From Escherichia coli (lineage in GTDB: Bacteria > Pseudomonadota > Gammaproteobacteria > Enterobacterales > Enterobacteriaceae): a DNA stretch of 64,000 nt. The first letter of the stretch is position 1; every line of letters begins with the position of its first letter. Location of the stretch: the NCBI RefSeq assembly GCF_022846255.1, contig NZ_AP025682.1. One strand, written 5' to 3'. This document shows positions 5,913-7,694 of this stretch, one piece after another. The translations under genes were made by a program, and so were the position numbers. The notes beneath the pieces were generated by a model. That model saw nothing but the letters and a program-made list of their open reading frames with translations. It made no database searches and had not been told where the DNA came from.

Positions 5913-7694
5913 ATGAAAATGACTTTGCCGTTTAAACCCCATGTGCTGGCGCTAATTTGCAGTGCCGGGCTTTGTGCCGCCTCTGCCGGGCTATATATAA
6001 AAAGCCGCACAGTGGAAGCGCCTGTGGAAGCGCAATCGACACAACAGACTGCGCCTGACATCTCCGCAGTTACGCTTCCTGCAACGGTTTCCGTGCCTCC
6101 TGTAACACCTGCCGTCGTCAAATCCGCATTCAGCACTGCTCAAATAGATCAATGGGTTGCACCTGTCGCGCTATACCCCGACGCCCTACTTTCGCAGGTG
6201 CTGATGGCATCAACCTATCCGACAAACGTTGCGCAAGCAGTACAATGGTCGCACGATAACCCACTTAAACAAGGCGATGCTGCTATTCAGGCGGTATCTG
6301 ACCAGCCGTGGGACGCCAGCGTTAAATCACTGGTGGCCTTTCCACAATTGATGGCATTGATGGGCGAAAACCCGCAATGGGTGCAAAACCTGGGCGATGC
6401 TTTTCTGGCGCAGCCGCAAGACGTGATGGACTCGGTACAGCGATTGCGGCAACTGGCGCAACAAACCGGCTCGCTGAAGTCATCAACGGAACAAAAGATC
6501 ATCACGACAACGAAAAAAGTCGTACCGGTAAATCAGCCCGCCAACGCCCCTGCCACACAATCAAATACCGTTTCTACGTCCAGCCCCGTCGTCGCAGAAC
6601 CTGCACCGACAGTAATAGCCATTGAGCCAGCCAATCCGGATGTGGTTTATATTCCGAACTACAACCCAAACGTGGTTTACGGCAGTTGGGCCAATACCGC
6701 TTATCCGCCAGTTTATCTGCCGCCGCCAGCCGGAGAACCGTTTGTTGACAGCTTTGTGCGCGGATTCGGCTATAGCATGGGCGTTGCTACCACATACGCA
6801 CTATTCAGCAGCATCGACTGGGACGACGACGATCATGACCATCATCATCATGACGATCATGACCATCATCATCATGACGATGATGATTATCATCACCACG
6901 ATGGCGGTCATCGTGACGGTAATGACTGGCAACACAACGGCGACAACATCAATATCGACGTCAACAATTTCAACCGTATCACCGGTGAGCATCTTACTGA
7001 TAAGAATATGGCATGGCGGCACAATCCGAATTACCGCGATGGTATGCCTTATCATGATCAGGATATGGCAAAGCGGTTTCACCAAACCGATGTTAAAGGC
7101 GGAATGAGCGCCACGCCGCTACCTGCTCCAACACGCGACAGCCAGCGTCAGGCGGCAGCAAGCCAGTTTCAGCAACGAACACACGCCGCCCCCGTCATTA
7201 CGCGAGATACCCAACGTCAGGCAGCGGCACAGCGGTTTAATGAAGCTGAACACAATGGGAGCTATGACGACTTCCGCGACTTCAGCCGTCGCCAGCCACT
7301 GACCCAGCAACAAAAGGACGCCGCTCGTCAGCGTTATCAGTCGGCTTCTCCTGAGCAGCGCCAGGCGGCTCGCGAGAAAATGCAGACTAACCCACAGAAC
7401 CAGCAGCGAAGAGAGGCGGCACGTCAGCGTATTCAGTCCGCGTCGCCTGAGCAGCGCCAGGCGGTTCGCGAGAAAATGCAGACTAACCCGCAGAATCAAC
7501 AGCAAAGAGATGCAGCACGTCAGCGTATCCAGTCTGCCTCGCCTGAGCAGCGTCAGGTTTTTCGAGAGAAAGTTCAGGAGAGCCGCCCGCAGCGTCTAAA
7601 CGACAGTAACCATACTGCCCGATTGAATAATGAGCAACGGTCAGCGGTACGCGAACGGTTGTCTGAGCGTGGAGCAAGGAGACTGGAAAGGTAA
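5913..7694 (+). CDS. yacH: YacH, uncharacterised secreted protein with His/Asp-rich tract and Gln/Arg-rich tandem repeats (593 aa)
   Basis: ORF with N-terminal signal peptide, DWDDDDHDHHHHDDHDHHHHDDDDYHHHD tract and ~2.5 copies of a ~32-aa repeat (QRIQSASPEQRQAVREKMQTNPQNQQ...). Confidence 0.8.
   Translation: MKMTLPFKPHVLALICSAGLCAASAGLYIKSRTVEAPVEAQSTQQTAPDISAVTLPATVSVPPVTPAVVKSAFSTAQIDQWVAPVALYPDALLSQVLMASTYPTNVAQAVQWSHDNPLKQGDAAIQAVSDQPWDASVKSLVAFPQLMALMGENPQWVQNLGDAFLAQPQDVMDSVQRLRQLAQQTGSLKSSTEQKIITTTKKVVPVNQPANAPATQSNTVSTSSPVVAEPAPTVIAIEPANPDVVYIPNYNPNVVYGSWANTAYPPVYLPPPAGEPFVDSFVRGFGYSMGVATTYALFSSIDWDDDDHDHHHHDDHDHHHHDDDDYHHHDGGHRDGNDWQHNGDNINIDVNNFNRITGEHLTDKNMAWRHNPNYRDGMPYHDQDMAKRFHQTDVKGGMSATPLPAPTRDSQRQAAASQFQQRTHAAPVITRDTQRQAAAQRFNEAEHNGSYDDFRDFSRRQPLTQQQKDAARQRYQSASPEQRQAAREKMQTNPQNQQRREAARQRIQSASPEQRQAVREKMQTNPQNQQQRDAARQRIQSASPEQRQVFREKVQESRPQRLNDSNHTARLNNEQRSAVRERLSERGARRLER
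7325..7580 (+). repeat. intragenic tandem repeat, period ~96-97 nt, ~2.5 copies, inside yacH
   Basis: cgtcagcgttatcag / cgtcagcgtattcag / cgtcagcgtatccag unit starts at 7325, 7422, 7518. Confidence 0.8.

Follow-up and report, generated by a model that had tools for sequence, protein, structure and literature searches.

Lineage-stable, in-frame tandem-repeat length polymorphism in the yacH gene of Escherichia coli

In the window, the whole 64,000-nucleotide stretch of Escherichia coli DNA analyzed here, the yacH gene encodes a protein of 593 amino acids, whereas the K-12-type gene is 1854 nt long and encodes 617 amino acids. Both lengths were as stated in an earlier reading made from the sequence alone, and the question raised by the locus is which changes in the gene account for the difference. 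That sequence-only reading had pointed to variation in the number of tandem repeats, and proposed that the deficit of 72 nt corresponds to three units of a 24-nt repeat. The features considered in this study were located as follows.

5913..7694, plus strand: yacH coding sequence, 593 aa, DUF3300 family, ST73-type allele, identified from the open reading frame, Pfam, and RefSeq annotation.
5913..5996, plus strand: N-terminal hydrophobic helix, aa 1-28, a putative signal peptide or signal anchor (AlphaFold2 helix 9-28; signal peptides in relatives).
6012..6035, plus strand: polymorphic short tandem repeat GTGGAAGCGCCT / GTGGAAGCGCAA, encoding VEAP-VEAQ.
6135..6935, plus strand: stretch matched by the Pfam DUF3300 profile, aa 75-341, with the conserved core at aa ~70-200 and ~233-305.
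6828..6899, plus strand: His/Asp-coding tandem repeat with two perfect 24-nt copies and a degenerate third; K-12 has one perfect copy.
7113..7325, plus strand: Gln/Arg-rich lead-in to the long repeat array, with degenerate motif copies SQRQAAASQF, TQRQAAAQRF, and PLTQQQKDAARQRY.
7326..7613, plus strand: three 96-nt (32-aa) units in codon register, of the composition A-A-Z; K-12 has four units, A-A-B-Z.

The gene is labeled "yacH: DUF3300 domain-containing protein" in RefSeq genomes, and its product scored 259 bits with PF11737 (DUF3300; E 4.7e-77), for which the gathering threshold is 25, covering profile positions 2-227 of 227. The family included 9,490 cluster representatives at E <= 0.001, while no family was matched by YacH in an NCBIfam search. 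In an alignment of 102 sequences, the residues A83, A86, L87, D90, W133, G161, Q176, and R179 were invariant between YacH and the DUF3300 family, and many further columns were at least 90% conserved. Canonical cleavable signal peptides were found at the N-terminus of most distant DUF3300 members, and because of these relatives, export of YacH to the periplasm is likely.

A protein alignment between the window and K-12 contained exactly two gaps, both of them inside repeats, which bore out the attribution of the length difference to repeat number. The window carried an additional 8 aa (DHDHHHHD, one 24-nt unit) and lacked 32 aa (one 96-nt unit), such that 617 + 8 - 32 = 593.

The smaller gap lies in the His/Asp-coding repeat, where perfect 24-nt copies were identified at 6828-6851 and 6852-6875 (GACGATCATGACCATCATCATCAT, encoding DDHDHHHH), followed by a degenerate copy at 6876-6899. 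TRF reported this repeat at 6828-6895 with a period of 24, 2.8 copies, 93% matches, and a score of 115. The 24-nt tandem repeat noted earlier is real, although the unit gatcatgaccatcatcatcatgac starts at 6831 and not at about 6841. In the His tract, DDDDHDHHHHDDHDHHHHDDDDYHHHDGGH, His and Asp each make up about 40% of the residues. It is located between the conserved residue W303 and an INVNxYN motif, a position at which the consensus of the family alignment has only a few residues, and a His-rich stretch was found at the same position in a subset of distant DUF3300 members.

When repeat units were counted across strains, both the 24-nt and the 96-nt repeats were variable in copy number within E. 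coli. To size the His tract, a contiguous query across the tract was searched in a systematic sample of 60 of the 5,426 complete genomes. Relative to the window, the tract was 24 nt shorter (the K-12-like state) in 49 genomes, 18 nt shorter in six, 63 nt shorter in two, and 30 nt shorter in one; it was of equal length in one (Nissle 1917), and one match was truncated. The 18-nt class is called the SE15 type after SE15, the one record of the class that was typed. Because most of the sampled genomes carried a shorter tract, the duplicated 24-nt unit of the window is a minority and derived state. The proteins of the 120 closest clusters included at least 29 distinct variants of the His tract, ranging from 20 to 36 aa, and the DDHDHHHH duplication also occurred on other haplotype backgrounds. 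Such recurrence could have come about by exchange of DNA between strains through recombination, without the mutation having happened more than once. Other changes in the tract included a duplication of GACCAT in SE15 and a 39-nt deletion flanked by TCATC(A/G)TGAC direct repeats in VE-V10-F. Small events of this type, in which sequence is duplicated or deleted at short direct repeats, fit slippage.

The larger gap lies in the Gln/Arg-rich array. A unit of about 97 nt in some 2.5 copies had been described for this region; the repeat is real (2.4 copies by TRF), and its period is 96 nt. TRF placed it at 7326-7557 with 88% matches and a score of 352, and the repeat search recovered three copies in register at 7296-7583 with identities of 100, 84, and 70%. 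Units of the array were typed as A (…REKMQTNPQNQQRR…), B (…VFKEKVQQRPLNQQQRDNA), and terminal Z. In the window, the units at 7326-7421 and 7422-7517 are both of type A, and the unit at 7518-7613 is the terminal type Z.

The array was sized in a systematic sample of 60 of the 5,426 complete genomes, using blastn with its two unique flanks as the query. Three units were found in 22 genomes (about 37%) and four units in 37 (about 62%), and the remaining genome, AST85 of a divergent lineage, was atypical. The three-unit composition A-A-Z was observed in ST73 and LF82, and A-B-Z was observed in SE15, H10407, 503829, and L3_E36; the presence of two different compositions therefore implies at least two origins of the three-unit state. 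With four units, A-A-B-Z was found in the K-12-type, strain 9000, Santai, VE-V10-F, and PK8275, and A-A-A-Z in ECE313. A rare allele of five units, encoding 648 aa, was present in P0006. The units are mosaic: unit 1 of H10407 equals unit 1 of VE-V10-F, and removal of one of the nearly identical A units from the VE-V10-F array would give that of H10407. The mosaic units and the relations among arrays form the pattern expected of unequal crossover, or of slippage together with conversion. The lead-in was also prone to indels in other strains: in alleles of 662 aa, 45 aa of it were duplicated in tandem, immediately ahead of the array.

A third and shorter repeat has a unit of 12 nt. In LF82, only a single copy was present at the GTGGAAGCGCCT/GTGGAAGCGCAA site (12 nt fewer), and the gene encodes 581 aa. 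All three repeats exceeded chance expectation, as none of 300 codon shuffles reached the observed self-identity at any of the three offsets. The shuffles peaked at 17 for offset 24 (observed, 24/24), at 45 for offset 96 (observed, 86/96), and at 10 for offset 12 (observed, 11/12).

The reading frame was retained throughout these changes. Of the 13 alleles compared (the window and 12 fetched), 12 were without internal stops, and every length difference was a multiple of three; in the 120 closest clusters, the shortest protein had 584 aa and the longest 662 aa. The sole annotated yacH pseudogene of E. coli, in L3_E36, resulted from an inversion of about 170 bp and contained no slippage frameshift, and no frameshift caused by repeat number was found among the E. 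coli alleles examined. With repeats beyond chance, a copy number that varies among strains, and a preserved frame, yacH has the properties of a coding-region VNTR. In Salmonella Typhimurium, the strains 14028s, UK-1, SL1344, and D23580 have a yacH gene that is inactive owing to an 8-bp frameshifting deletion in the homologous tract (PMC3391293; PMC10048834). This deletion therefore confirms the tract as prone to mutation, and it suggests that yacH is dispensable in S. Typhimurium.

Within lineages, the allele appeared to be stable. Identity to the window allele was printed as 100.0% for the independent assemblies of CFT073, Nissle 1917, ABU 83972, ATCC 25922, and clone D, and a 2,251-nt span including yacH was the same in all 30 ST73-type genomes among the matches listed. 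About 81 of the 5,426 complete genomes were at least 99% identical to the window allele. Repeat copy numbers were likewise uniform in the sampled K-12-type and O157:H7 records. Fast variation of the MLVA type among close relatives of one clone was not seen in the ST73-type, K-12-type, and O157:H7 records, which give an indirect view of it.

An AlphaFold2 (AF2) model of YacH was built from the 102-sequence alignment, with a mean pLDDT of 74, and no significant structural neighbors of the model were identified. It included a helical core at residues 70-200 (pLDDT about 96) and a beta-rich part at residues 233-300 and 345-395. The His/Asp tract was placed in a loop at residues 310-340 that is predicted to be disordered (pLDDT <50), and the product of the 12-nt repeat in a low-confidence linker at residues 28-45 (pLDDT <50). 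Each 32-aa unit was modeled as two helices with a proline at each start (480-491/494-508, 512-523/526-541, and 544-556), with block-mean pLDDT values of 71-87 over the units. According to the model, the gain or loss of one 32-aa unit is the gain or loss of one predicted hairpin. The length changes may thus be tolerated structurally because they are located in regions predicted to be insensitive to length.

These observations very probably have one common explanation, namely that three in-frame repeats of 12, 24, and 96 nt changed in copy number during the diversification of E. coli through slippage or unequal recombination, and that the window carries the allele of the ST73 lineage. Copies would be gained or lost when replication slips or when two repeat units undergo unequal homologous recombination. 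In the ST73 lineage, compared with K-12, these processes would have produced a derived 24-nt duplication (+8 aa) and an A-A-Z array in place of A-A-B-Z (-32 aa). The sites at which such changes would be tolerated are the disordered, acidic and His-rich loop in the DUF3300 core, the linker after the signal sequence, and the C-terminal stack of hairpins. The mechanism, be it slippage, unequal crossover, or gene conversion, is inferred from the end products only. As an in-frame tandem-repeat length polymorphism that is stable within lineages, the variation in yacH is of an ordinary kind.

The gene as a whole was also unusually diverged. Between the window and K-12, yacH showed a dS of 0.30 and a dN of 0.037, as opposed to a dS of 0.06-0.12 and a dN of about 0 in its neighbors. 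The overall omega against K-12 was 0.13; dN was 0 across codons 72-195 and raised in linker regions. The locus may therefore have been shaped by selection or by imported DNA rather than by neutral drift.

Several other explanations were weighed against copy-number change in three repeats. The proposal that the window allele equals the K-12 allele minus three 24-nt His/Asp units drew on arithmetic only, in that 617 - 593 = 24 aa = 72 nt = 3 x 24. It is rejected by the alignment, which gives the window one more 24-nt unit than K-12 (two perfect copies against one) and one fewer 96-nt unit (three against four); the shortening comes from the missing 96-nt unit, and the equality of 72 nt with 3 x 24 is a numerical coincidence. 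Tandem repeats can collapse in short-read assemblies, and a four-unit array collapsed to three, or a misassembled His tract, would also alter the length. However, the sequence was found at 100.0% over 2,251 nt in at least 30 complete genomes from various laboratories, and collapse of the window allele is contradicted by the approximately 81 genomes at 99% identity or more. The array itself is only 288 nt long, and its first and second units are not identical. Since the unit types differ, an A-A-Z array without a B unit is not a collapsed A-A-B-Z, and the His tract is longer rather than shorter than in K-12. An assembly artifact is accordingly exceedingly improbable. It is also very unlikely that yacH is a contingency locus, in which the repeats would act as a fast and reversible switch, by phase or antigenic variation, for turning a surface-exposed YacH on and off or for rapidly changing its size. 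Such a role would be consistent with the occurrence of several repeats in one gene, the predicted export of the product, the many alleles, the raised dN in linker regions, and the frameshifting 8-bp deletion inside the S. Typhimurium tract (PMC3391293; PMC10048834). In contrast, the units of 12, 24, and 96 nt and the changes of 6, 18, 30, 39, and 63 nt are all multiples of three, so that copy changes are neutral to the frame. The 12 intact alleles out of 13, the inversion underlying the E. coli pseudogene, the presence of only two to four imperfect copies (84-88% identity), and the overall omega of 0.13 also argue against a switch, as does a copy number that was constant within the sampled clonal groups (ST73, K-12-type, and O157:H7), unlike that of MLVA markers.

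A further reading is compatible with repeat gain and loss as the source of the alleles, and adds that copy-number alleles were selected, with the His/Asp loop binding divalent metal and the hairpins binding clients in the manner of the LTXXQ proteins CpxP and Spy. Adaptive tuning of this kind is unlikely, while several observations are in line with it. The loop is rich in His and Asp (about 40% each), a composition from which metal binding would be a plausible guess, and a His-rich stretch recurs in distant members of the family. Additionally, yacH has been listed as CpxR-regulated, and its deletion alters survival under protamine, making cells more tolerant (PMC9600279). The tail contains one literal LTXXQ ("PLTQQQ", aa 462-467) and three "SPEQRQ" motifs. 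Its similarity to CpxP was weak: a single BLASTP comparison gave an E of 0.011, and the Smith-Waterman score was 76 against 48 +/- 8 for composition-matched shuffles (z about 3.5), where 1 to 8 of 1000 shuffles reached 76 in three runs. The comparison with Spy gave a z of 2.1 (32 of 1000 shuffles), and that with ZraP was not significant (z 1.2, 126 of 1000). Pfam LTXXQ (PF07813) was not matched by the whole protein at E <= 1 or by the tail alone at E <= 10, and the isolated tail yielded only sub-threshold noise in Pfam (RskA_N at E 0.11; DUF1104 at E 4.1). A fold shared with the solved CpxP and Spy structures was not found in a structural comparison. The CpxP-like character of the tail is therefore treated as a weak lead and not as a finding. 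As for the loop, a PDB sequence search with YacH returned engineered FLAG/His tags only, and no solved structure or curated family supporting metal binding was found in the NCBIfam, PDB, and structural neighbor searches. The fullest form of this reading, in which YacH would be a Cpx-regulated periplasmic stress protein with a ZnuA-like loop and CpxP/Spy-like hairpins, whose alleles of one to two His units and three to five hairpin units were selected for metal capacity or client-binding valency, is decidedly unlikely. If true, it would also account for the divergence of yacH, which is several-fold that of its neighbors.

Repeat gain and loss in yacH has counterparts in known systems, although no account of repeat polymorphism and no biochemical function was found in the literature on yacH and DUF3300, nor any use or mention of yacH as a VNTR locus. 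The closest analogues to this polymorphism, for which no earlier description was found, are coding VNTRs such as STTR5, from the in-frame repeats within enterobacterial envelope genes on which repeat-based strain typing (MLVA) draws. In S. Typhimurium, STTR5 (CACGAC, encoding His-Asp; yohM/rcnA) and STTR3 (bigA) are, like the repeats of yacH, head-to-tail coding repeats with a unit that is a multiple of three, in which copy number alters protein length but leaves the frame intact, and STTR5 also encodes a His/Asp tract, located between the domains of a metal-related protein (PMC3391293; PMC5183578). However, the 6-nt unit of STTR5 occurs 7-26 times, and its number varies among closely related strains (PMC3391293), whereas yacH has one to two copies of 24 nt and three to five imperfect 96-nt units that were constant across the sampled clonal groups. 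Within its own family, YacH resembles other DUF3300 members in having a signal sequence, a conserved core, and a Q/R-rich low-complexity tail. The tails of the others are different, some with unrelated tandem repeats of their own; within DUF3300, only Escherichia and close relatives have the long insertion of His and Asp residues and the array of 32-aa "SASPEQRQ..." units.

Periplasmic metal proteins of the ZnuA type have flexible loops rich in His and Asp. The YacH loop is similarly an acidic, His-rich, length-variable insertion, predicted to be disordered, in a protein that is likely exported; there is no homology to ZnuA, and metal binding by YacH is putative. The tail resembles CpxP, Spy, and ZraP in its predicted helical hairpins, which begin with (L/S)(T/P)xxQ and continue into Q/R/E/K-rich helices, and both cpxP and yacH have been reported to be Cpx-regulated (PMC9600279). 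Unlike these proteins, YacH has a large and unrelated N-terminal core, and the likeness could be compositional.

The finding itself matters little, in that the length of YacH differs among lineages by ordinary gain and loss of in-frame repeats. For annotation, YacH variants of 581-662 aa should not be taken as errors. Lineages can be marked by the states of the His tract and of the 96-nt array; for example, two 24-nt units together with A-A-Z denote ST73. Additionally, the natural series of alleles, with one to two His units and three to five hairpin units, could be used for probing the function of DUF3300. If the CpxP-like signal and the Cpx regulation are meaningful, YacH would be a candidate envelope-stress or metal-handling factor.

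The surroundings of the gene were also scanned. In the window, a chromosomal stretch oriented in reverse to K-12, yacH lies on the plus strand, and acnB and lpdA lie on the minus strand. Predicted promoters and terminators around yacH were no more numerous than in shuffled sequences. An Rfam scan of the window at the gathering threshold gave no matches within the yacH coding sequence, and the nearest match was the REP-derived ES036 in the downstream spacer.

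In the codon comparison of the window with K-12, yacH (5913-7694) had a dS of 0.30, a dN of 0.037, and an omega of 0.13, while acnB (2961-5711) had a dS of 0.118 and a dN of 0.0006, and lpdA (7936-9360) had a dS of 0.06 and a dN of 0. The divergence of the window allele from K-12 was several-fold greater for yacH than for acnB and lpdA, and the LpdA protein showed no differences among all of the E. coli genomes fetched. The acnB interval is that of a mechanical ORF on the minus strand, which reached 916 amino acids because an earlier upstream ATG was taken as the start; the annotated AcnB begins with VLEEYRKHV, and the RefSeq gene length is 2,598 nt.

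Two deeply diverged haplotypes, NQPANAPATQSNTVSTSSPVVAEPAP versus KQTVTAPVIPSNTVLTANPVITEPAT, were observed in the Pro/Thr/Val-rich linkers of yacH, for which the following values were obtained:

~6018-6128 (+), yacH linker, codons 35-72, omega 0.83
~6498-6623 (+), yacH linker, codons 195-237, dS 0.97 and dN 0.21

These linker haplotypes could represent old balanced alleles or DNA imported from elsewhere.

Divergent or disrupted copies of yacH were also found in other strains. The strain AST85 encoded a highly divergent allele of 619 amino acids (locus L007, 1259-3118), in which the N-terminal linker differs and the 96-nt repeat array contains B-type units only, and its AcnB and AceF proteins were likewise unlike those of the other strains fetched. 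The yacH of the ETEC strain L3_E36 (locus L006, 1712-3469) was annotated as frameshifted, a reading that was rejected in favor of an inversion of approximately 170 bp. The inversion begins where the His/Asp tract ends, and the DNA of this tract (GATCATGATC-like) is partly palindromic, with an inverted repeat identified. Found in one genome only, the inversion could be either genuine or an assembly error.

Each 24-nt unit of the His/Asp tract carries a GATC (Dam) site (6831-6834 and 6855-6858), and duplication of the unit therefore added one such site to yacH. A GATC site also forms the start of the 8-bp deletion reported in Salmonella yacH (GATCATCA; PMC10048834).

The spacer between yacH and lpdA (7695-7935) spans 241 nt, compared with 70 nt in K-12, and contains REP-type repeats as well as a terminator-like hairpin:

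7775-7817, REP-type repeat, Rfam ES036 match
7881-7903, terminator-like hairpin

In line with its REP-type repeats, a query that included this spacer had a median of 17 match sites per genome. In the strain ECE313, the spacer holds an IS621 transposase gene (locus L009, 2740-3720).

Outside the yacH region, an Rfam scan of the window at the gathering threshold identified seven matches, all of which look like ordinary E. coli features:

13838-13951, tp2
25225-25301, naRNA4
25705-25774, STnc40
31421-31510, PssrA
53010-53158, leucine operon leader
57917-58143, SgrS
59900-59999, TPP riboswitch
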